Source of the DNA: a virus
Length of the DNA: 64,000 nucleotides
Virus record (IMG/VR): IMGVR_UViG_3300032214_001034
Coordinates: 10,469 to 74,468 of that record
Strand: one strand, 5' to 3'
Part shown: one piece after another, positions 22,203-56,191 of the stretch
Numbering within the stretch: position 1 is the stretch's first letter
Layout: each line of letters begins with the position of its first letter
The notes under the pieces: model-generated
What the model was told of the DNA's origin: nothing
The model's database searches: none
The model's input: only the letters and a program-made list of their open reading frames with translations
Translations under genes and position numbers: made by a program

Positions 22203-22547
22203 ATGTCAAAGCATTTTTATTTTATTGATGTCAATGTAGCAGCTGGTCAAAGCACTCTGACTGCTATTGCCAATGAGTCAGCGACTTTTGGTATTGGTGC
22301 AACTTCAATTTTAGAACCCAATGAATTAGTTGTAGGAACAGCATTGAGTGTTGGAGTAGCATTAAGTGTTGGAACAGGAGTTTCGGTTAGTAGTGGAATT
22401 GTAACTGCTACTGGTGGATTTATTAGTGGTATTAGCACTAATGGACTGCTGGGAATTTCTACTACACCGATTCAAATAACTCTCAATGGAAATATACTTT
22501 CCTTTACTGCTGTGGGAATTGGATCAACTTTCTTCACACTGGCTTGA
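22203..22547 (+). CDS. Small fibre-like structural protein
   Basis: VGT..SV.SGIVTAT.GF motif also seen in the fibre locus; AGGAG RBS. Confidence 0.5.
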   Translation: MSKHFYFIDVNVAAGQSTLTAIANESATFGIGATSILEPNELVVGTALSVGVALSVGTGVSVSSGIVTATGGFISGISTNGLLGISTTPIQITLNGNILSFTAVGIGSTFFTLA

Positions 22548-22573
22548 CAGGGGTCCCGTCCATCCCCTATAAT
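22544..22573 (+). promoter_or_regulatory. Sigma70-type early promoter
   Basis: TTGACA-18 nt-TATAAT. Confidence 0.75.
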
Positions 22574-22598
22574 AAGAGGGTAATCAACGGACGACCGA

Positions 22599-22781
22599 AT
22601 GCAAGACGAGTACCTCACACGCTGCGTGGTGGACCCTGTGAAGCGTACAGTGTACCTGTACTCTAATGAAGGGTCAGAAAAGGAAGTGACCTGTGAGACC
22701 GTGGAAGAGTTTATGAATGTGCTAGACTTTGTTCGTGCTACAGTGGATGAAGAAACTCTCTCATACGCAAATCCACTTTAA
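22599..22781 (+). CDS. Hypothetical cyanophage protein
   Basis: 60-aa ORF directly after an early promoter. Confidence 0.65.
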   Translation: MQDEYLTRCVVDPVKRTVYLYSNEGSEKEVTCETVEEFMNVLDFVRATVDEETLSYANPL

Positions 22782-22840
22782 GTTCCATTTTTGGTCGAAA
22801 AAAATCCCGGTAAATTTTCTCACACGATACTTTTTTCAAA

Positions 22841-23047
22841 ATGAATCCTTATCGCATTAACTACAAAGCACTGAAAGAAGAACCAGTGAAAACCACACCA
22901 GAGAATGTGAAGGAAGCAAATGAGAACTTGTTTCGTGCTAAATGGAATCTTCCTCAAGCAGCAAAGCACTGTGGAATGTCACAAAAAGAAATGAAATTGA
23001 CATTCTGGGAGTATCTCAAGTATAATCCTATGACTTACCAAGCGTGA
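22841..23047 (+). CDS. Hypothetical protein, possible helix-turn-helix
   Basis: WNLPQAAKHCGMSQKEMK looks HTH-like. Confidence 0.55.
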   Translation: MNPYRINYKALKEEPVKTTPENVKEANENLFRAKWNLPQAAKHCGMSQKEMKLTFWEYLKYNPMTYQA

Positions 23048-23053
23048 GTTTTT

Positions 23054-23126
23054 GCCCGTGTAGTCCAACGGCAGAGACAGGGGACTTAAAATCCCTCCAG
23101 TGTCGGTTCGAATCCGACCACGGGTA
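23054..23126 (+). tRNA. trnL: tRNA-Leu(TAA)
   Basis: Acceptor GCCCGTG/CACGGGT, anticodon arm GGGGA-CTTAAAA-TCCCT, T arm GTCGG-TTCGAAT-CCGAC; no encoded CCA. Confidence 0.9.
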
Positions 23127-23170
23127 TGAGGTTTAACCTCTAAATAAACAAAAGTAATAGGAATATTACT

Positions 23171-23440
23171 ATGAAGTACAGGATTGATTCTGCATATGTT
23201 TGGTTCAATCGCGGAAGACAACTTGTTCTTATGTACTTTGTAAATCAAGTTCCATTTACTTTTGATGAACTCCCTGACGAATCTTTATTTGACTTGGAGT
23301 TGATTGAACTAGCAGACAACGAAAGACGCTTTGAACCTGAGGACTTGTATCAATCTTCTTACTATCTTATGTTAGAAGAATGTCATCCTTTGCTTTATGA
23401 GTTGGATTTAGAAAATCCAGAAATGTTGCCTGTTGATTAA
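23171..23440 (+). CDS. Hypothetical protein
   Basis: 89-aa ORF with TAAATA at 23141 and AGGA RBS. Confidence 0.65.
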   Translation: MKYRIDSAYVWFNRGRQLVLMYFVNQVPFTFDELPDESLFDLELIELADNERRFEPEDLYQSSYYLMLEECHPLLYELDLENPEMLPVD

Positions 23441-23441
23441 T

Positions 23442-23513
23442 GCCCTTGTAGCTCAGTGGTAGAGCAACGGTTTTGTAAACCGTTGGTCGCTGGTTCAAAT
23501 CCAGTCGGGGGCT
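23442..23513 (+). tRNA. trnT: tRNA-Thr(TGT)
   Basis: GCCCTTG/CGGGGGC acceptor, GCTCAGTGGTAGAGC D arm, ACGGT-TTTGTAA-ACCGT anticodon arm, GGTTCAAATCC T arm. Confidence 0.92.
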
Positions 23514-23532
23514 CTGAGTTCTATAACTCCAA

Positions 23533-23691
23533 ATGTCACTTATTTCACAACAAGACCGTCAAATGGTCATTGAAGCACTTGAATATTATGTTCAAAAACT
23601 TAAGGACGATAATTGTACAGATGCTTCCATCACGGCATTTCAAACCCTCCTTAATTGGATCGAACTGGAACATTTCAAGCATGAAAATTAA
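23533..23691 (+). CDS. Hypothetical 52-aa protein (not in ORF track)
   Basis: Read manually: MSLISQQDRQMVIEALEYYVQKLK...HFKHEN*; overlaps start of next ORF. Confidence 0.6.
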   Translation: MSLISQQDRQMVIEALEYYVQKLKDDNCTDASITAFQTLLNWIELEHFKHEN

Positions 23692-23854
23692 TCTTTGGTA
23701 TTGCGCTGATATGAATCAGTGGCGTTGGACTCTTACGGATAATAGTCGTCCTATTTGTCGCCAAGAATCGGGACAGAGACCTTTTCTTCGTGATGCGATG
23801 AATGACGTAGCAAATACTGTAGAATATATGTTAGAATGCAAACAAACTGAGTAA
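23681..23854 (+). CDS. Hypothetical 57-aa protein
   Basis: Likely true start of track ORF 23456..23854 (MKINLWYCADMNQWRWTL...); upstream part of that ORF is the tRNA. Confidence 0.6.
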   Translation: MKINLWYCADMNQWRWTLTDNSRPICRQESGQRPFLRDAMNDVANTVEYMLECKQTE

Positions 23855-23864
23855 AAATACTTAG

Positions 23865-24485
23865 ATGAAATCAGACTTTTATATAGATAGGGTAGGTAAA
23901 GAAGAAATCAAAGAACTTCTTTATACCTATCATTATCTTAAAGACGAATCCAAAGATTTTAAATCTGGTTTCAATTATGGACTATATCGTAAATCTTTCA
24001 CAGACATCCTTAGGGTTGGCAGCTGTCTTGGTGCTTGCGTTTTTACTGGTCTCCCAGTTCCAGAAATTGCCGTAGGTGCTTTTGGTTTAGAAAGAAATCA
24101 GCAAGAAGGAATATATGAACTCTCACGTTTGTGTATTCATCCAGATTTGCAAAAAGAAGAGTATAATATCACATCTTGGTTCGTTAGTCGTTGCATAAGG
24201 AGATTTAGGAAAGATGCCCGCGTTCGTGCTATTCTTAGTTACGCTGATGCTAATCACCACTCTGGAACTATATACAGAGCTTCTAATTTTGGTTACTACG
24301 GTTTAACTGATAAGAAATCTGATTTCTGGATTAAACAACCAGATGGATCATTTATCAAACATTCAAGGGGTTCAACTAAAGGTGTAGAAGGTGAGTGGAG
24401 AGAAAGAAGTAGAAAACATAGATATTTGATGGTGTTTGACAAAGAACTTCAAAAACGCTTGACATGGGAAGAGGAGAAGTGGTAA
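23865..24485 (+). CDS. Mom-like DNA modification protein (GNAT fold)
   Basis: HYL, ELSRLC, SWFVSRC, ILSYAD...H.GTIYRASNF.Y.G and K.RY motifs of the Mu Mom family. Confidence 0.7.
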   Translation: MKSDFYIDRVGKEEIKELLYTYHYLKDESKDFKSGFNYGLYRKSFTDILRVGSCLGACVFTGLPVPEIAVGAFGLERNQQEGIYELSRLCIHPDLQKEEYNITSWFVSRCIRRFRKDARVRAILSYADANHHSGTIYRASNFGYYGLTDKKSDFWIKQPDGSFIKHSRGSTKGVEGEWRERSRKHRYLMVFDKELQKRLTWEEEKW

Positions 24486-47013: not shown

Positions 47014-47811
47014 ATGTCGCAGCTATACGTTGACAACATCAAAAACAGAACAGGTGGATCAGTTGGATTTCCGACTGGAATTGTTGTAACGGGGGTTGCG
47101 ACTGCTACGCAATTTAGTGGAAACATCACAGGAACAACAGCAACATTCTCTGGTAATGTGTCAGTTGGAGGCACATTAAGTTATGAAGATGTAACGAATG
47201 TTGATTCAGTCGGATTGATCACTGCAAGAAATGGTATTGATGTAACAGCGGGTGGTATTAATGCTGTTGGTGTTGTAAGTGCTACTAGTTTTGTCGGAAC
47301 TGCATTAAGTATTTCTGGTATTGGAACTATCAGCGACCTAAGTATAAAAGCAGCTGCAGAAACAGTATCAGTCGCCTCAACAAGTGATTTGGGTGGGGGA
47401 AAGGTTGTAATTGAGTGTGATGCAACAAATGGAACAGTATTTACTCACAATCTTGTGAATGGAACTGTTGGTATTGTTTCATTAAAAAATTTCCCAGTTA
47501 GAGGAAATTCTGTTACAACATATTCAATTATATTCAACCAACTTCCAACAACTCCTGCAGGGGCTGGTAATACAACTCCAGCAACAGGTATTGGAACTAA
47601 TATTACATTAACTCCTTCAGGTGTTTCTGGATTTACAACATCAGCAAGAGTTGCAACAGCATCTACTGTAACTCTTTCAACAACTGCAAATGATGTAGAT
47701 ATTGTAACTCTTGCAGTTCATTACAATGGTTCTGGAACAGGAACTCCAGGAAATTACAGAGTATTTGCAACAGGAAATACTGGATATAGATTCGGAACTA
47801 TTGGATTCTGA
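47014..47811 (+). CDS. Stalk with fused C-terminal adaptor domain (type C)
   Basis: MSQLYVDNI N-terminus, TLSYEDVTNVDSVG, C-terminal ..DI..L......NYRV domain. Confidence 0.6.
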   Translation: MSQLYVDNIKNRTGGSVGFPTGIVVTGVATATQFSGNITGTTATFSGNVSVGGTLSYEDVTNVDSVGLITARNGIDVTAGGINAVGVVSATSFVGTALSISGIGTISDLSIKAAAETVSVASTSDLGGGKVVIECDATNGTVFTHNLVNGTVGIVSLKNFPVRGNSVTTYSIIFNQLPTTPAGAGNTTPATGIGTNITLTPSGVSGFTTSARVATASTVTLSTTANDVDIVTLAVHYNGSGTGTPGNYRVFATGNTGYRFGTIGF

Positions 47812-47824
47812 TAGGAGGTAGATT

Positions 47825-48832
47825 ATGGCACCATTTTTTACTGGAATTGCAAAGAATATAGGTGGTTATGGATTTGGTAGAAGAAGAAGTGGGCCCGTTC
47901 CATTTTCTGCTACTGGAGGTACTTTAGTTTCTCCGGGAAATGGATATAATTATCACGTTTTTCTTACACCCGGAACTTTTACAGTAACTTCAGGAACTGC
48001 TAATGTAGAATATCTGGTAGTTGCTGGTGGTGGAGCAGGTGCTTATGATGGAAGATCCCCATCAGACCGACAAGCAACAGGTGGTGGTGCTGGAGGTTTA
48101 AGAACTAACTCACCAACAGCACCAGCACCATTAAAGGCACCAGATTTACCTCTAGACGCAGGAACATATCCTGTTAGTGTTGGTCCTGGAGGAGTTGGTG
48201 GTTTTGTTACTGGACCCGGTTCTGATGGATTTAGAGTAGGAAATAAGGGCGGAGATTCAACATTTCATACTATAACTTCAAACGCAGGTGGTGGTGGAGG
48301 AGGTCATTATCCACCAGCTGGAGGTAATGTCTATCCAGATATAACAGTATATAAAGGTGGATCTGGATCTAGTGGAAATGGACCATCAACATCTGATGGA
48401 AACTTTCCACCAACTTCTCCGCCACAAGGAAATCCTTCTGGTGCTGCAAGCGGACCTGGAGCTAGTGTTGGTGGTGCTGGTGGTGCTGGTGGTGTTGGGG
48501 GTCCAGGATTAACTGGTGCTGGCGGCGCTGGATTGGCAGTTCCTGCTTTTGCTGCGCCACTAATTTCGCCGGCAATCCCCGCACCAGTTCAACCAACTTG
48601 GATACCTGCTGTTGGACCTACAGGGTTGTATGCTGGTGGTGGTGGATCTACGAGTAATTTTTCTGATGGAACAATTATTGGACCTGGTGGACCGGGTGGA
48701 GGCGGAAGTGCTGGTAGACCTGCAGGATCTGCAGCAGTTACTTATACAGGTGGTGGTGGTGGGGGATCTGGTGGATCTGCAACTTTTGCATCTGGTGGAT
48801 CCGGAATTGTTATTGTTAGATATGTTGCATAA
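47825..48832 (+). CDS. Gly/Pro-rich adhesin tip (one domain)
   Basis: MAP...GFGRRR N-terminus; YNYHVF..PGTF; ends GSGIVIVRY. Confidence 0.65.
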   Translation: MAPFFTGIAKNIGGYGFGRRRSGPVPFSATGGTLVSPGNGYNYHVFLTPGTFTVTSGTANVEYLVVAGGGAGAYDGRSPSDRQATGGGAGGLRTNSPTAPAPLKAPDLPLDAGTYPVSVGPGGVGGFVTGPGSDGFRVGNKGGDSTFHTITSNAGGGGGGHYPPAGGNVYPDITVYKGGSGSSGNGPSTSDGNFPPTSPPQGNPSGAASGPGASVGGAGGAGGVGGPGLTGAGGAGLAVPAFAAPLISPAIPAPVQPTWIPAVGPTGLYAGGGGSTSNFSDGTIIGPGGPGGGGSAGRPAGSAAVTYTGGGGGGSGGSATFASGGSGIVIVRYVA

Positions 48833-48835
48833 AGT

Positions 48836-48864
48836 TTGACACTCCAACAAACATCCTATATAAT
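48836..48864 (+). promoter_or_regulatory. Consensus sigma70 early promoter for the oxygenase/halogenase cluster
   Basis: TTGACA-17 nt-TATAAT. Confidence 0.85.
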
Positions 48865-48887
48865 ATCACTGAATACATTATTCAAAT

Positions 48888-49508
48888 ATGGCATTTCAAT
48901 CAATTTGGTATTTTTCTGATCTACCAGAAGAAGTAGTAGATCTTGTAGAACGAGACCTTTCAGAAAAGTTCGAAGAGCAAATGGCAGACTCCAGATTGCA
49001 TGGAGACGCACTGAACAAAGATAAACGAAACTCACAAAACGCTTGGATCCCCACCACACATTGGGTTGGTGGATTCGTATGGCACTATATTGAACGTGCA
49101 AACCGCGAGAACTTCCTCTATGACCTTCGTTGTATTGATGGAGAATCAATGCAGTTCACGAAGTATAGTGAAGGACAGTTCTATGGTTGGCATAATGACG
49201 CAGGTTTAGCGACTCAATACAAACCTGTAAGTGTTGGTAATCGTCAGGATGGTCTGGCACAAGATTTCTTGAATGAGAATATTGAACTTGTACGTAAACT
49301 TTCATTCGTGGTCCAACTCTCTGACCCCGATGATTATGAAGGTGGCAATCTCCAACTTCTTGATGAAGCAGGGAATAGTTATATTGCTCCCCGTAAGCGT
49401 GGCACTGTGATTCTGTTTGATTCCCGCACACAACATAGAGTTCTTAAAGTTACAAAAGGAACCCGTAAGAGTTTGGTAGGTTGGTGCGTAGGCAGCCGTT
49501 GGAAATAG
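48888..49508 (+). CDS. 2OG-Fe(II) oxygenase (prolyl-hydroxylase/PKHD type)
   Basis: Y.WH.D, RKLS..VQLS.P.DYEGG.L, H.V..VT.G.R.SLV.W. Confidence 0.9.
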   Translation: MAFQSIWYFSDLPEEVVDLVERDLSEKFEEQMADSRLHGDALNKDKRNSQNAWIPTTHWVGGFVWHYIERANRENFLYDLRCIDGESMQFTKYSEGQFYGWHNDAGLATQYKPVSVGNRQDGLAQDFLNENIELVRKLSFVVQLSDPDDYEGGNLQLLDEAGNSYIAPRKRGTVILFDSRTQHRVLKVTKGTRKSLVGWCVGSRWK

Positions 49509-49557
49509 AAACTTCGGTGGAACTGACTAAATAGTTATATCTATATTGAATAAAACT

Positions 49558-50268
49558 ATGGAAAATCATTATGTTTACTATTCTTATGAGGAGTTTGGGA
49601 GGGGTTACATAGGTTGTAGGACCTGCGAATGTCTCCCAGAAGAAGATCAATATATGGGGTCTTTTACTGATGAAACATTCAATCCAACCAACAAGATAAT
49701 CCTTGAAACTTTTTCTACAAGAAAAGAAGCACTTCAAGCAGAAGTAGATCTCCATAAGTTTTATCAAGTAGACAAAAATTCTCACTTTGCTAATAAAGCA
49801 AGACAAAAAACAACTGGATTTTATTATTCATTTAAAGGAGCAATTCGCACAGAAGAATACAAAAAGAAAATGAGCGAAAGACTTAAAGGTAGAGAAATAA
49901 AACCAGAATGGATTGAAAAAATGAAAGAAAATCTAAAACCTGCTTTTGGTGAAGATAATCATTTTTATGGAAAAAATCACACAGAAAAATCTAGAAAAGA
50001 AATTTCAAATTCCCTCAAAGAATATTATACAAATAATTCACATCCTTGGTCTGGTAGAAAACATAGTGAAGAATCAAAAGTAAAATTTAGAATAAAAAAC
50101 TCTGGTGAAAATAATCCAAATTTTGGAAAAATACAAAGTGAAGAAACAAAGGAAAAAGTTAGATTAGCAAAAATTGGTAAAAATTGGTGGTCTAATCAAA
50201 TGGAAGAAAAATTTTGTAAAGAATGTCCTGGTGAAGGATGGAAACTTGGTAGAAAGAAAAGGAGGTAA
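49558..50268 (+). mobile_element. Free-standing GIY-YIG (Seg-like) homing endonuclease with NUMOD3 repeats
   Basis: YVY...GRGYIG..Y.GS; G.+H[ST]E[EK]S repeats; late promoter TAAATA at 49528; inserted between two oxygenase genes. Confidence 0.8.
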
Positions 50269-50271
50269 GTT

Positions 50272-50994
50272 ATGGCAGAACAAATGAGCGAACTGCAACT
50301 AATGATGCAGGAAAGGATGAATACGGGAACTGCTTGGACTCGTAATGAATCCTTTGAAAAGAATGGATATTTGGTAATCAAAGACCTTTGGGACCCAGAA
50401 GAACTTTATCATCCTCTGCCACCAGAACGTGGACAGATGAACTGGTGGGGTAAAAAGATTGACCAGTTTACTCATACACCAGTAGAACAACAGGTTGAAG
50501 GTTCACTTGCGCGTTATTGGCACCCACAATATCGTCAGATTCACTGTGGTATTCGCACAAAACTAGAAGAAGCACTGGGTCGTAAACTTTATAATACTTA
50601 TTATTATGATAGATATTACTTCCCTGGTCAGGAACTTACACGTCACGCAGACCGTGATGCCTGTGAGATTTCTGTGACGGTTCATATCAGCACTAATCTG
50701 GAAGGTAAGGATGCTGATTGGCCGATCTTTATTAAGACACCAGACCAATACGCAGACAAAAAGAAAACCCAGGTATTAGTTCCTGGTGAGAACCGTTCTG
50801 TGGTTCTCAAAGCAGGTGATGGTATGGTTTATAAAGGTTGTGAACGCCCACACTGGCGTGATCCGATGCCTGGTGCAAAGAAGAATAAAAAACTGTTTGG
50901 TAAAACTTCTGAACTTTATTTTCATCAGATCTTTTTTCACTACGTGCTTCAAGATGGACAACGTGCCCACTGTGCTTGGGATAGAGCACGATGA
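50272..50994 (+). CDS. 2OG-Fe(II) oxygenase
   Basis: L.RHADR.ACEISVT, WPI, GDG..YKGCE..HWR, QIFFHYV. Confidence 0.8.
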   Translation: MAEQMSELQLMMQERMNTGTAWTRNESFEKNGYLVIKDLWDPEELYHPLPPERGQMNWWGKKIDQFTHTPVEQQVEGSLARYWHPQYRQIHCGIRTKLEEALGRKLYNTYYYDRYYFPGQELTRHADRDACEISVTVHISTNLEGKDADWPIFIKTPDQYADKKKTQVLVPGENRSVVLKAGDGMVYKGCERPHWRDPMPGAKKNKKLFGKTSELYFHQIFFHYVLQDGQRAHCAWDRAR

Positions 50995-51542
50995 AAACTC
51001 CACTTTTTGAATACCCTTCTTATCAATATCAAATTGATGATTGGGATTTTAAAAAGAAGGGACTGCTAAATCGTATCAACTCTCAAAAGTTTGTAAGGAC
51101 TACACTTCAAACTTTTGAGACCGACAGACAAACAAACAAGAAGTCATATCTACATTACTTCCAAGACCTTATCAAACCTCAACTGTTTGAGTTTTGTCGG
51201 GAAGCAGAAGTTTCTTGTAGTATGACTGATTGTTGGTCTGTGAGATATAAACAAGGAGACCATCAGACCATTCACAATCATCGTAGTTGGGGATTTTCTG
51301 GTGTTCTTTATGTTGAGTATGATCCCAAACTTCATACTCCTACTTGTTTCGTTGCTCCTTGGCAAGACCCAAGAACTGATACAACAACATTAGCATATCC
51401 ACAAAATGTAAAGGAGGGAACATTAGTGATTGTTCCTTCTTATACTTTACATTTTGTACATCCCAATCAAGTAAGAAAGCAGAGAACGATTATATCTTTT
51501 GACTTACTTCCCAAACTACCAGAACACCAAGCAATCCAGTGA
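50991..51542 (+). CDS. 2OG-Fe(II) oxygenase (TIGR02466-like)
   Basis: H.H....SGVLY, EG.L...PS...H.V.P.....R..ISF. Confidence 0.8.
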   Translation: MKTPLFEYPSYQYQIDDWDFKKKGLLNRINSQKFVRTTLQTFETDRQTNKKSYLHYFQDLIKPQLFEFCREAEVSCSMTDCWSVRYKQGDHQTIHNHRSWGFSGVLYVEYDPKLHTPTCFVAPWQDPRTDTTTLAYPQNVKEGTLVIVPSYTLHFVHPNQVRKQRTIISFDLLPKLPEHQAIQ

Positions 51543-52960
51543 AAATAGTTATTGTAGGAGGCGGAACCGCAGGATGGATTTCCGCCCTCATTCTTCAAAA
51601 GGAAACAGATCATAACATCACTTTGATTGATAGTTCTTCTATCGGACCATTAGGTGTTGGTGAAAGTACAACAGGACTCTTTGGACAAGTTATTCGTGCA
51701 TACTTGTCTGAGGAGGACTTTGTTGAAAAGTGTGGTTTAACTCCTAAATTAGGAACACAATTTATCGGATGGTCCGATAAAGATTTTTATTCTCCATTAG
51801 AAGGTACATTCTCAGCACATGATGAGTTTGATTATGCCTTCTATTATGGATTAGAAAACTCAAGACTGAATGATTATTCTGTATTCAGTTTATTTGCAAG
51901 TCAAGATAAGATTAATTTTAATAAGACAACTACAAAAGAAAAGTTTGTCTCTGATAGAAGGTATGCATATCATTTAGATACTTACAAAACAATTGCATAT
52001 CTAAAAGAAAAATGTGTTGAATCTGGTGTCCAATTTATTGATTCAAAAGTTGTAGATATTTCTTTAGATAAATTCAGAAACGTAAATCAAATCTATACAG
52101 AAGACTCTGCGATAGAGTGTGATTTTGTAATTGACTGTAGTGGTTTCAATCGTACAGTCATATCAGCATATAATCCTAACTTTGTATCTTATGAGAAATG
52201 GATGAGTGTCAATACAGGACTTCCATTTAACTTAAGTTGGGATGAGATTGAATATAAAAAACCTGTTACTACATCAAGAGCTTTATCTTGTGGTTGGATG
52301 TGGATGATTCCAACACAACATAGTATTGGTTGTGGAATTGTATATGACAATAACTTTGCAACACAAGATGAAATAGTTGCAGAAGTCAATGAAATACTTG
52401 GAGTCAATATAAAAATAAGAAAAGAAATTAAATTTAGATCTGGAAGACTGGATCAATCTTTGTGTCATAATGTTGCATCAATTGGCACTTGCTATTCATT
52501 CTTGGAACCATTACAAGCAACAAGTATTCATACAACAATTCTACAAATAGAACGATTGGTTCATCTATTAGAGAATAGTATTACTGTAGATGACTATAAT
52601 CTTTTTTGTGCAGATGTAGTTGATAATTATGCTGACTTTGTATCATTACATTATCAATTTAAGCATATTAATAATGAGTTCTGGCAAAGTAGAATTCCAA
52701 GAGAATATACAGCAGAAATGATTGAAAAATCAAAGAGACAAGCATTAACACCATATGATTATGATATTAATCGAGGACATTATGAACTAGTTGGTCATAA
52801 TTTATGGAGTTATATACTTGCTGGTGGTCATTTAGTAACTCATCAAAGAATAAGTTATACGGAAGAGCAGTTAAATAATATTCAACTTTGGGAAAATCAA
52901 ATTCCAGAAGTTTTAGAGAACTCTATGACATTCACCGATTTTCTGGGGATGTATAAATAA
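51539..52960 (+). CDS. Flavin-dependent halogenase (tryptophan-halogenase family)
   Basis: VGGGTAGW, GVGEST, AYHLD, IDCSGF, WMWMIP (WxWxIP), FLEPL.ATSI; GTG start. Confidence 0.88.
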   Translation: MKIVIVGGGTAGWISALILQKETDHNITLIDSSSIGPLGVGESTTGLFGQVIRAYLSEEDFVEKCGLTPKLGTQFIGWSDKDFYSPLEGTFSAHDEFDYAFYYGLENSRLNDYSVFSLFASQDKINFNKTTTKEKFVSDRRYAYHLDTYKTIAYLKEKCVESGVQFIDSKVVDISLDKFRNVNQIYTEDSAIECDFVIDCSGFNRTVISAYNPNFVSYEKWMSVNTGLPFNLSWDEIEYKKPVTTSRALSCGWMWMIPTQHSIGCGIVYDNNFATQDEIVAEVNEILGVNIKIRKEIKFRSGRLDQSLCHNVASIGTCYSFLEPLQATSIHTTILQIERLVHLLENSITVDDYNLFCADVVDNYADFVSLHYQFKHINNEFWQSRIPREYTAEMIEKSKRQALTPYDYDINRGHYELVGHNLWSYILAGGHLVTHQRISYTEEQLNNIQLWENQIPEVLENSMTFTDFLGMYK

Positions 52961-52975
52961 CTAGAAAGTCATAAA

Positions 52976-53383
52976 ATGACAAGAGCAAGAGACCTAGCAA
53001 GATTAGGCAATAGCCAAGCACTTTCGGTTGATAGTAACTTTAATGTTGGTATTAACTCCACACAACCCGATTCAAAGTTAGATGTTGTTGGTGTTGTTAG
53101 TGCTACTTCATTTTATGGTGATGGTTCAAACTTAACTGGTATTGCTGCTACTGATACAGTAAGCACCAGTTCTTTAAACGTTATTGGTATTTCCACTCTC
53201 GGTGGATTTACTACTTTTGGTAATAATGCTTTTATTGCGGGTATTGTAACTGCTACTAGTTTCAGCGGAACAGTCCCATCATCAAACTTAAGTGGAGCAT
53301 TACCTGCTCTTGATGGTTCTGCACTTACAAATCTCAATATTCCTGCAGGTTTTAACGAACTTGATGCAGCTTTGTTTAACTAA
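52976..53383 (+). CDS. Short stalk, C-terminus FNELDAALFN
   Basis: MTRARDLA N-terminus, VGI.ST.P, FYGDGSNLTGI. Confidence 0.6.
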   Translation: MTRARDLARLGNSQALSVDSNFNVGINSTQPDSKLDVVGVVSATSFYGDGSNLTGIAATDTVSTSSLNVIGISTLGGFTTFGNNAFIAGIVTATSFSGTVPSSNLSGALPALDGSALTNLNIPAGFNELDAALFN

Positions 53384-53405
53384 ATAATACAAAAAGTATA
53401 TACCA

Positions 53406-53807
53406 ATGGGACTTAAAAGAACTAAACTCTTAGGAATTCAAGCAGTTACTGGTATTAATACCGTTGGTATTTTGACGGTTGGCACCACTCCAACTGCTGG
53501 TGGTGTTGGTATTGCATCAACCACTTATCTGCGTGGTGTGGTGATGCATAATACTGGACTTGCAACCTGCACCTCATCACTTTATGTTTATCCAAGCACT
53601 GTTGCAGTTTCTGGTGTAGGACAGACGGCATATCGTTTAGCGAGAGTTGACTTAGCATCTAACGAAACTTTCTTCTTTGAGATGAACTACCCACTGGTTC
53701 TGGTAAATCAAGAAAAGATTGTTGTAGAAGTTACAGCACCAGCATCAGGAGGAACGGGTATTGGTAGTGCAGTAAACTATCAAATCCTTGGTGACACTGA
53801 CATCTAA
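53406..53807 (+). CDS. Fibre adaptor protein, type B
   Basis: Close paralog of 35581 ORF (STTY.R.VVMHNTGL, GGTGIGSAVN). Confidence 0.6.
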   Translation: MGLKRTKLLGIQAVTGINTVGILTVGTTPTAGGVGIASTTYLRGVVMHNTGLATCTSSLYVYPSTVAVSGVGQTAYRLARVDLASNETFFFEMNYPLVLVNQEKIVVEVTAPASGGTGIGSAVNYQILGDTDI

Positions 53808-53822
53808 TAAGAGGTAGTTAAA

Positions 53823-54857
53823 ATGGGTGCAAGAAGTTCTAATAGTAATAGGGGACAAAATAATCGTAGTGATGGACACTTATTAGAGTATTTCCGTAAT
53901 ACTTTTGTTCGTGGTGGTGGTGGTACTAATGTCAATATCAGTTTTCTTGCTACTGGTGGAGACATTGCTAGTGCTTTATCTCCAGGAAACGGGTATAAGT
54001 ATCATACTTTTTCCAGTCTTGGAACTTTTACCGTTAATAGTATTGGAAATAAAGGCACAAAATGCGAAATATTAATTGTTGCCGGAGGAGCATCTGGTGG
54101 ATCTGATAGAGGTGGTGGTGGTGGCGCCGGTGGCGTAGTTCATTACACTAATTTGAGTTTATCGGTTGGGTCTTATACAGTATCTGTTGGTGGTGGAGGA
54201 GCATCAGTTACTGGGTCACCCGGAAATTCTGGCAGTGATAGTTCATTTGGAACTAGTCCATCCCCAACTTATCTAGTATCTAAAGGTGGTGGTGGTGGAG
54301 GATATAATTCTGGTGGTGGTCTAAATGGTAAAATTGGTGGTTCTGGTGGCGGCGCAAACTATGGCGGAAATCCAGGTCCAGCAAATCAATCATCTCAAAA
54401 TCCTTCATTCGTAGGATTACCTGGATTTAATCAATATGGAAACAATGGTGGTACTGGTTCCGGAGGTCCAAAGTTTCAAAATGGAGGTGGAGGTGGTGCC
54501 GGTGGTGCCGGAGGAAATGGAAATACTGGATCAACCAATACCGGTGTTGGTGGAGTGGGAATTCAAATTCCTGCTTTTTCTGGTCCTCTTATTGGCATCC
54601 CTGCCCTGAATCCATTAAGTGCTTTTTTTGCAGGTGGTGGTGCTGCTTCTGTTGGTTCTGAAAATGGTTATGGAACGCCATATTCTCCAGGAGCATCTGG
54701 CGGTTCTGGTGGTGGTGGACCATCTAACCCAGAACCTCCCGGCACTGGAAATCCAGGAACTCAATATTCTGGTGGAGGTGGCGGTGGTGGTCACACCGGC
54801 GCAGATTCTTCGGGTTCTGGTGGTGATGGTCTTGTTGTTATTCGATATTTAGAATAA
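53823..54857 (+). CDS. Gly/Pro-rich adhesin tip (one domain)
   Basis: AL.PGNGYKYHTF and PAF.GPLIG.PAL.PLS shared with 35982 ORF. Confidence 0.65.
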   Translation: MGARSSNSNRGQNNRSDGHLLEYFRNTFVRGGGGTNVNISFLATGGDIASALSPGNGYKYHTFSSLGTFTVNSIGNKGTKCEILIVAGGASGGSDRGGGGGAGGVVHYTNLSLSVGSYTVSVGGGGASVTGSPGNSGSDSSFGTSPSPTYLVSKGGGGGGYNSGGGLNGKIGGSGGGANYGGNPGPANQSSQNPSFVGLPGFNQYGNNGGTGSGGPKFQNGGGGGAGGAGGNGNTGSTNTGVGGVGIQIPAFSGPLIGIPALNPLSAFFAGGGAASVGSENGYGTPYSPGASGGSGGGGPSNPEPPGTGNPGTQYSGGGGGGGHTGADSSGSGGDGLVVIRYLE

Positions 54858-54865
54858 ATAACATT

Positions 54866-54914
54866 ACCTAAACATTTACAAATTTAGGTGGGGGAGTAAA
54901 AATACTCTCTTTTT
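54866..54914 (+). ncRNA. Candidate tiny late RNA 1 (hairpin plus terminator)
   Basis: TAAATA 54855; ACCTAAA...TTTAGGT hairpin; GGGAGTA/TACTCTC-TTTTT terminator. Confidence 0.35.
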
Positions 54915-54977: not shown

Positions 54978-55406
54978 ATGGCACATTTCGCACAACTAGA
55001 TGAAAACAATGTTGTTACTCAAGTCATTGTTGTGAGTAACGAAGATACTTCTGACTCAAATGGTGTAGAAGTAGAAGAAATCGGTGTAGCATTCTGTAAG
55101 AAACTTCTGGGTGCTGACACCAACTGGAAGCAGACTTCATATAATAACAATATGAGAGTTCGTTATGCCGGTATTGGTTATACCTATAATGAAGAACTGG
55201 ATGCTTTTGTACCCCCCATCCCATTTTCCAGTTGGATATTAAATGAAGAAACTGCTGATTGGGAATCCCCACTTAGACCTGCTCCAGAACTTACTGAAGA
55301 AGAAATTGCTTCTAGAAGTTTTTACAGATGGGACGAAGAAGCATATCAAGCAGACAATACTACCGGATGGGTTCTAGAAACTCTTGAAGCACCTGTAGAG
55401 GAGTGA
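54978..55406 (+). CDS. Conserved 'MAHFA' phage protein associated with Gly-rich tips
   Basis: MAHFAQLD.NNVV..VIVV...WKQTSYN...R..YAGIG..Y....DAF.PP.P..SW. Confidence 0.7.
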   Translation: MAHFAQLDENNVVTQVIVVSNEDTSDSNGVEVEEIGVAFCKKLLGADTNWKQTSYNNNMRVRYAGIGYTYNEELDAFVPPIPFSSWILNEETADWESPLRPAPELTEEEIASRSFYRWDEEAYQADNTTGWVLETLEAPVEE

Positions 55407-55507: not shown

Positions 55508-56191
55508 ATGTCTAACAAAAAGTATCACTATACCTACTATTCTTATGAAGAATGGGGGAGAGGATATATTGGTTGTAGAAGTTGTGATTGTTTGCCTGAA
55601 GAAGATGTAAAATATCTTGGATCATTCTACGACAAAACCTTTAATCCAACCCAAAAAATAATTCTAGAAACTTTTAAAACGAGAAAGGATGCAATTCGTG
55701 CAGAAATAGAAATGCATAACTTCTATGATATTGCAGCAAATCCACACTTCGCAAATAAAGCAAAACAAACCTCTACAAGATTTACTCAAGCGGGCGTAAG
55801 TCCATCTGAAGAGACGAGAAAGAAATTGAGTAAAGCAGGTAAAGGTAAAAAAAGAAGTGAAGAAACAAGAAAGAAAATAAGTCAGTATCAGAGGAGTAAA
55901 AGTTTAAGTGAAGAAACAAGAGAAAAGGTTCGTCTAGCAAATATCGGTAAAAAGTTATCACCAGAAACAATAAGAAAAAGAGAGGAGACAAGAAGAAAAA
56001 ACTACGAAAAAGGTCCAAAAAGAGTTTTAAGTGAAGAAAGTAAAAGAAAAATAAGTCAATCTGTTAAAAATTTGCCAAGCACTATTTTTATAAATGATGG
56101 ATTTGTATCTAAAAGAATAGAAAGAAATGTATCAATACCCGATGGTTGGGTAAGAGGTAGATTACCAAAAAACCCCGCCACCAGCACCTGA
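55508..56191 (+). mobile_element. Free-standing GIY-YIG homing endonuclease with NUMOD3 repeats
   Basis: YTYYSYEEWGRGYIG; SEETR.K.S repeats; own late promoter TATAAATA at 55475; paralog of 49558 ORF. Confidence 0.8.

Follow-up and report, generated by a model that had tools for sequence, protein, structure and literature searches.

A conserved module of 2-oxoglutarate oxygenases, joined in some members by a halogenase, within the tail-fibre array of a T4-like cyanomyovirus

The window analysed here, a stretch of 64,000 nucleotides (nt) from the IMG/VR virus record IMGVR_UViG_3300032214_001034 (the final 64 kb of a 74.5-kb viral record), contains at positions 48836-52960 a cassette of five genes: three oxygenases, a halogenase and a homing endonuclease. 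This cassette is a conserved module of tailoring enzymes resident in the hypervariable tail-fibre array of a T4-like cyanomyovirus. Open reading frame 1 (ORF1) followed by ORF3, usually together with ORF4, forms its core, whereas the halogenase (ORF5) and the endonuclease are optional. Among the functions that such a module could have, tailoring of the fibres is the single most likely, ahead of readings in which it acts on a small molecule, acts on the host or serves as a sink for 2-oxoglutarate (2OG), and we put it forward at somewhat less than even confidence. An earlier note, made from the sequence of this DNA, had recognized three different oxygenases and a WxWxIP halogenase; these four enzymes are borne out at the level of family by matches to PF13640, PF13759 and PF04820 and by phrog_2954/gp54 homology, and the fifth gene, a NUMOD3 homing endonuclease, had been overlooked. 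The elements of the cassette are:

48836..48864, + strand: perfect sigma70-type promoter TTGACA-17-TATAAT, exact match, with TTGACA at 48836 and TATAAT at 48864
48870..48884, + strand: conserved palindromic leader TGAATAcatTATTCA, between the -10 box and the ATG of ORF1
48888..49508, + strand: ORF1, prolyl-hydroxylase-like 2OG-Fe(II) oxygenase (T4-GC412 type), PF13640 2OG-FeII_Oxy_3 match
49555..50268, + strand: NUMOD3 homing endonuclease, two NUMOD3 matches, phrog_314
50272..50994, + strand: ORF3, classical 2OG-Fe(II) dioxygenase like gp54 of phage Syn9, phrog_2954
50991..51542, + strand: ORF4, 2OG-FeII_Oxy_5 protein (T4-GC155 type), PF13759 match, 50 bits
51539..52960, + strand: ORF5, flavin-dependent halogenase, PF04820 Trp_halogenase, E 2.8e-81

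The genome that carries the cassette is that of a T4-like cyanomyovirus. The baseplate and fibre genes of the window are T4-like, its GC content ranges from 35 to 49%, and Synechococcus phage S-SM2 gave the only match at the DNA level in the phage collection searched. The fibre-cassette array spans 34.7-58.1 kb of the window, and a fibre cassette runs from a stalk-like gene through a small phrog_20100 gene to at least one ‘tip’ gene of the Gly_rich_2 family (PF21722/phrog_2295). Gly makes up 27-33% and Pro 6-11% of the tip proteins, each of which contains 7-19 PG and 3-17 GP dipeptides; the earlier description of the tips as rich in PG, GP and PSP therefore holds for the first two, PSP being rare (0-2 per protein). 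The fibre genes that adjoin the enzymes are:

47825..48832, + strand: upstream Gly/Pro-rich fibre tip (PF21722), closing a late operon that starts at 47014 with a stalk gene (47014-47811)
52952..54857, + strand: downstream late fibre cassette, its TATAAATA promoter lying inside the 3' end of the halogenase gene
52976-53383, + strand: stalk of the downstream cassette
53406-53807, + strand: phrog_20100 gene of the downstream cassette
53823-54857, + strand: tip of the downstream cassette

The residence of the enzymes among fibre genes is shared across related viruses. Specifically, an IMG/VR scan based on ORF3 returned 79 loci (37-93% identity), in nearly all of which ORF1 and ORF3 are adjacent and in essentially all of which the pair is found among fibre genes; the earlier hypothesis, which had named linkage across phages as a check, survived this comparison. 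In loci with at least 3 kb of upstream sequence, a Gly-rich tip lies within 1.5 kb in 23 of 50 and within 6 kb in 33 of 50, and the five inspected loci without a detected tip have the ORF1-ORF3 pair amid large fibre-like ORFs. Many of the related loci contain further fibre cassettes downstream, as the window does, and in two records of 136-139 kb the sole PF13640 gene and the sole PF21722 gene are 0.7 and 2.3 kb apart. The linkage persists despite heavy local rearrangement, including an inversion in Pelagibacter phage HTVC008M and the use of a different slot in two loci (L072 and L082). The order in Syn9, P-TIM40 and Sf-CH3 is tips, a small late gene, halogenase(s) and dioxygenases, and that in HTVC008M is a tip, a small gene and an inverted oxygenase cluster. 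These comparisons of tips used profile searches in place of tblastn, which found almost no matches to the tip protein in the phage collection because the low-complexity filter masks its sequence.

The company that the module keeps in related arrays is likewise restricted. The identifiable non-fibre genes sampled there encode 2OG oxygenases, an Asp/Asn beta-hydroxylase, a sulfotransferase, a carbamoyltransferase, a subtilase, a tail chaperone and endonucleases, with no photosynthesis or nucleotide genes among them. Examples, by locus, are:

L027:13630-14433: sulfotransferase directly after a tip gene
L017:14853-15380: Asp/Asn beta-hydroxylase
L021:362-1900: carbamoyltransferase
L045:5826-7490: subtilase

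A small phrog_7759 gene (54978-55406 in the window; ~140 residues, no Pfam match) also recurs in these arrays, where it regularly follows the last tip and precedes ORF1 in the relatives and in HTVC008M; its product may be a fibre helper protein.

A second conserved feature of the module is its promoter. The perfect TTGACA-17-TATAAT sequence reported in the earlier note is exact, and perfect TTGACA/TATAAT sites number three in the window against 0.09 expected. The orthologous cassette of S-SM2 has the same perfect promoter, and of 59 non-duplicate related contigs, 23 have the ORF1 promoter in perfect form and another 18 have it with a single mismatch (41/59), at a fixed distance from the ATG. 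A phylogenetic footprint of 45 upstream regions shows that both hexamers and the palindromic leader are conserved and the flanks are not, the per-column conservation of the leader being 0.7-0.9 against 0.3-0.4 farther upstream. The leader itself is a perfect palindrome (TGAATA-cat-TATTCA) that is more conserved across the relatives than the -35 box, and it may function as an operator or a leader hairpin.

The surrounding fibre cassettes, as had been claimed, use late promoters of the TAAATA type: this motif lies 12-45 nt upstream of 16 of the 27 structural or fibre gene starts, against 0.64 expected. Within the enzyme cassette only the endonuclease has TAAATA in promoter position, 27 nt upstream, and in the related arrays several enzyme genes with a visible upstream signal have a sigma70-type -10 box, and in no case does a late motif lie where a promoter would. 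No terminator was found between the upstream late operon and the cassette, nor between the cassette and the next fibre cassette, the first terminator-like hairpin downstream being at 54890-54911; late read-through into the cassette is therefore likely. Judged from these signals, the cassette is likely to be expressed both early from its own promoter and late by read-through, and the earlier proposal of early expression, a reasonable one given a promoter conserved in most relatives, would cover the first of these phases. In two metatranscriptome runs there are contigs identical to parts of the halogenase, one of them extending into the stalk gene, which is a weak sign that the halogenase is transcribed; depth in the metagenome and metatranscriptome runs is contig-derived and so provides no ranking of expression. 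The runs labelled as lake, subsurface and drinking water had small shares and carry no information on habitat. The cyanophage transcriptome papers examined do not mention the cassette genes.

It is informative to examine the oxygenases individually. ORF1 is a member of the 2OG-Fe(II) dioxygenase superfamily by its iron triad, its 2OG-binding RxS motif and the double-stranded beta-helix fold of its predicted structure. The residues concerned (H102-x-D104 and H183 for the triad, R193-x-S195 for RxS) are invariant in 39 sequences, and the AlphaFold2 (AF2) model, with a predicted local distance difference test (pLDDT) score of 83, is closest in fold to P. putida PPHD, then to PHD2, PiuC and vCPH of PBCV-1. 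PPHD (4iw3), human PHD2 and the PBCV-1 collagen prolyl 4-hydroxylase (P4H; 5c5t) share with ORF1 the modelled fold (template modelling score, TM, 0.58-0.71), HxD...H and RxS, although sequence identity is only 15-20%. PPHD acts on EF-Tu and the PBCV-1 enzyme is a viral collagen P4H; on the model, the likeness of ORF1 to the protein prolyl hydroxylases PPHD, PHD2 and vCPH would be a resemblance of fold. Its nearest relatives in sequence are PiuC/YbiX, which the literature ties only to iron-uptake receptors, giving no substrate.

ORF3 has no Pfam match in the profile scan, and its family, phrog_2954, carries the wrong label ‘ferrochelatase’. The protein is 27% identical to Syn9 gp54, its H125-x-D127...H194 is invariant in 34 sequences, and its model is a double-stranded beta-helix (pLDDT 92) with matches to PPHD, AlkB and SnoN (Foldseek E 2.5e-8). 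In ORF4 the invariant residues form an H95-x-H97...H154 pattern, in which the canonical carboxylate ligand, the acidic ligand of the iron, is therefore not evident; the pattern suggests that ORF4 may have a 3-His metal centre instead of being a canonical 2OG hydroxylase. Searching the PDB by sequence with ORF3 and ORF4 yielded no useful match, and the profile scan found no Cupin_8/JmjC match in any ORF of the cassette. The start of ORF4 overlaps the stop of ORF3 (ATGA) and the GTG start of ORF5 overlaps the stop of ORF4 (GTGA), so ORF3, ORF4 and ORF5 are probably one translation unit and translationally coupled.

ORF5 matches PF04820 over residues 2-436 with 274 bits (cut-off 21). Aligned to 9luq, it has GGGTAG (the GxGxxG motif for flavin adenine dinucleotide, FAD), the K of ‘tpKlG’, GWMWMIP and the Glu in ‘LEPLqaTSIH’ all at conserved positions, and at 473 residues it falls 40-70 residues short of PrnA, RebH and VirX1. 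VirX1, the halogenase of cyanophage Syn10 (PDB 6qgm), resembles it in the FAD motif, the lysine, WxWxIP and the glutamate, and is likewise viral and a neighbour of fibre tips; however, VirX1 is ~29% identical, has 531 residues and falls in a separate clade. The active site of VirX1 is large and open (PMC8407142). In the halogenase tree ORF5 is sister to the clade of S-PM2, Syn1 and Sf-CH3_193, and fibre-adjacent members are present in each of three deep clades, including one in actinophage DSL-LC01, where a halogenase and a glycosyltransferase lie downstream of collagen-like genes. A single-sequence IMG/VR scan with the halogenase returned one short locus.

The endonuclease at 49555-50268 is a mobile insertion outside the enzyme pathway. 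Only some of the related loci have it between ORF1 and ORF3, and a metagenome contig of a close relative joins 49484 to 50271 without it. Likewise, a metagenome contig of a close relative joins 51523 to 53078 without the halogenase, and forms that lack the endonuclease and forms that lack the halogenase thus co-exist in nature. Among the contigs there were also short-sided joints between tip genes (48033 to 54480). A GIY-YIG motif in the endonuclease was seen by eye only, there being no Pfam match to it. A paralogue of this endonuclease (E 2e-44), likewise a NUMOD3 homing endonuclease, is encoded in the window at 55508-56191 between two fibre cassettes, with a TATAAATA motif upstream and hairpin terminators on both flanks.

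The closest known systems place the module more exactly. Genes SSM2_035-038 of S-SM2 (NC_015279) form a cassette orthologous to that of the window, located between genes with a tail-fibre annotation; at the DNA level ORF1 shares 78% identity with gene 035, and at the protein level ORF3 and ORF4 share 77% and 81% with 036 and 038. Unlike the window, S-SM2 has an additional oxygenase (037) and has no halogenase, endonuclease or PF21722 tip gene. The gp38-gp54 neighbourhood of Syn9 (PMC2938197) also resembles the window, in that tandem, distantly related dioxygenases and Trp-type halogenases lie directly downstream of Gly_rich_2 tips, one of these halogenases (gp42, which is VirX1) being 2.3 kb from the tips. 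The Syn9 array differs in its far greater size (ten dioxygenases, a JmjC/MINA member among them, and two halogenases of another clade than ORF5) and in following a late-promoter gene. With its three oxygenase families, its halogenase and its homology to gp54, the set of genes in the window is a cyanophage dioxygenase/halogenase neighbourhood of the Syn9 type.

It is also worth considering the relatives of these enzymes outside the virus family. Bacterial gp54-like genes occur in tandem, are 28-36% identical and have as neighbours asparagine-synthase-like genes (9 loci), sulfotransferases (7 loci) and phage tail-collar-domain proteins (3 loci). These dioxygenase-sulfotransferase-tail-collar operons resemble the window in their gp54-like dioxygenases, and related phage arrays also have a sulfotransferase beside a tip; they differ in being cellular, in including asparagine-synthase-like and methyltransferase genes and in having no halogenase, except at a single locus (L095). 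Fibre-like proteins have been predicted as the substrates in such bacterial dioxygenase operons (Iyer 2010, PMC2938197). The exceptional locus, L095:3330-15261 in a marine single-cell Pseudomonadota genome, has together a gp54-like oxygenase, a Trp-type halogenase, a tetratricopeptide repeat (TPR)-sulfotransferase, a TPR-GT41 protein glycosyltransferase and TauE, and the TPR enzymes hint at protein substrates. One candidate for phage context, the unverified faecal ‘bacteriophage’ MT835646.1 (L013), was rejected as an apparent bacterial contig, on the strength of its genes for a TonB receptor, SapC, a Cupin_8 protein, a halogenase and an amine oxidase.

How might the module serve the virus? On the explanation that we favour, it would be transcribed by the host RNA polymerase from the start of infection, and its expression would be kept up later by read-through from the upstream late operon. 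The enzymes would act on proteins or peptides and not on free metabolites, with the co-encoded Gly/Pro-rich fibre proteins as the most likely substrates. Pro or other residues would be hydroxylated, perhaps with sulfation or carbamoylation afterwards in the relatives, and where the halogenase is present an aromatic residue would be halogenated. In its fullest form, this would be a dedicated virion-tailoring system in which hydroxylases and halogenase covalently modify Gly/Pro-rich receptor-binding tips and in which sulfo- and carbamoyltransferases act on the new hydroxyls in relatives, a proposal that we regard as possible and hold more tentatively than fibre tailoring in general.

The earlier note had already read the cassette as a fibre-tailoring pathway, and it is partly supported: the residence in the array and the tailoring-enzyme neighbours agree with it, as do the likeness in fold of ORF1 to protein prolyl hydroxylases, the conserved promoter, the sulfotransferase and tail-collar neighbours of bacterial gp54-like genes, the fibre-adjacent halogenases of three deep clades, and the closeness of VirX1 to the Syn9 tips together with its open active site; several observations weigh against it, and the assignment of the Gly/Pro-rich fibres as substrates is its weak step. 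All the phage loci come from a single family in which gene order is conserved, and their repeated adjacency is therefore not independent evidence: the linkage could come from shared gene-order ancestry, and recombination between paralogous fibre cassettes would alone hold intervening genes in the array. The orthologous cassette of S-SM2 exists in a genome with no PF21722 gene. Trp is scarce in the tips (0-1.1%), and ORF5 is accessory, missing from S-SM2 and most related loci, with its S-PM2, Syn1 and Sf-CH3_193 relatives located beside talC, hli and psbA and not beside fibres. Bacterial clusters of halogenase and dioxygenase occur with TonB receptors and SapC and no fibre gene. The enzymes have early-type promoters and the fibres late ones, a mismatch in timing, and we found no report of hydroxylated or halogenated phage fibres in the literature. 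Given the linkage within a single family, the low Trp content, the halogenase relatives in a photosynthesis-gene region and the fibre-less bacterial clusters, the further claim that the enzymes are a fibre-tailoring pathway rather than auxiliary metabolic genes of host metabolism goes beyond what the observations show.

The strongest alternative, although an unlikely one, is that the enzymes produce or modify a small molecule or a short peptide (for instance a secondary metabolite bearing halogen or hydroxyl groups, or a siderophore-like compound) and that the array is simply a region tolerant of insertion. Secondary metabolites, not fibre modification, were proposed for the Syn9 array by Iyer, Abhiman, de Souza and Aravind in 2010 (PMC2938197), and in vitro many free aromatics are halogenated by VirX1. 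Neighbouring halogenase and oxygenase genes also occur at a distance from fibre tips in Syn1, P-SSM2 and HTVC008M, the nearest named relatives of ORF5 are in a metabolic-gene region, and the fibre-less bacterial clusters combine the halogenase with a JmjC/cupin protein, SapC and TonB receptors. However, genes for a peptide synthetase, a precursor peptide or export are missing from the cassette, the closest folds to ORF1 act on proteins, and the genes lodged in the arrays are limited to tailoring enzymes and are not the usual accessory mix.

Less probable again is a role for the enzymes in early takeover of the host, through modification of host proteins or of receptor precursors, for example by prolyl hydroxylation of a translation factor or by a change to a cell-surface receptor that blocks superinfection, with co-evolution with the receptor-binding genes explaining the adjacency. 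The strong, conserved host-type promoter would fit early action, as would the sigma70-type -10 boxes of enzyme genes in related arrays. The EF-Tu prolyl hydroxylase PPHD is the best structural match of ORF1, and PiuC/YbiX, its nearest relatives in sequence, work with outer-membrane receptors. Nonetheless, no host target has been identified, Syn9-type arrays follow a late-promoter gene, and the association of the bacterial enzymes with tail-collar proteins would be left unexplained. It is very improbable that the oxygenases mainly consume 2OG to tune the host nitrogen-status signal (NtcA), with their prime substrates irrelevant, as suggested by Sullivan 2010 (PMC3037559): early expression would fit, but such a sink needs neither three unrelated oxygenase families in fixed order, nor a halogenase, nor strict fibre linkage, and the catalytic and substrate-side residues are strongly conserved.

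The cyanophage dioxygenase/halogenase neighbourhood as a kind was already known from Syn9 (Iyer 2010); new here are the strongly conserved host-type promoter of the ORF1-ORF3 core, a halogenase of another clade than VirX1, and the association of the bacterial gp54 family with sulfotransferases and tail-collar proteins. Genes for 2OG-Fe(II) oxygenases rank with the most frequent accessory genes that marine cyanophages carry, yet for ~20 years no substrate has been known for these enzymes, and the natural substrate of viral halogenases, including the biotechnologically used VirX1, is likewise unknown. The tight and widely conserved residence in a receptor-binding array offers a concrete candidate substrate for these enzymes. 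If fibre tailoring is true, the module would be the first enzymatic system for side-chain modification of phage adhesins, it would supply a natural substrate for VirX1 and other viral halogenases as well as for the 2OG oxygenases of cyanophages, and chemically decorated adhesins would add a new level at which the host range of ocean viruses varies.

The window contains a second island with early-type signals, at 22544-24485 inside the structural module. Perfect TTGACA-N-TATAAT promoters are found there at 22544 and 22997, and the island contains tRNA-Leu (23053-23127), tRNA-Thr (23442-23514), small ORFs and a gene of the Mom family (PF25680) at 23865-24485.

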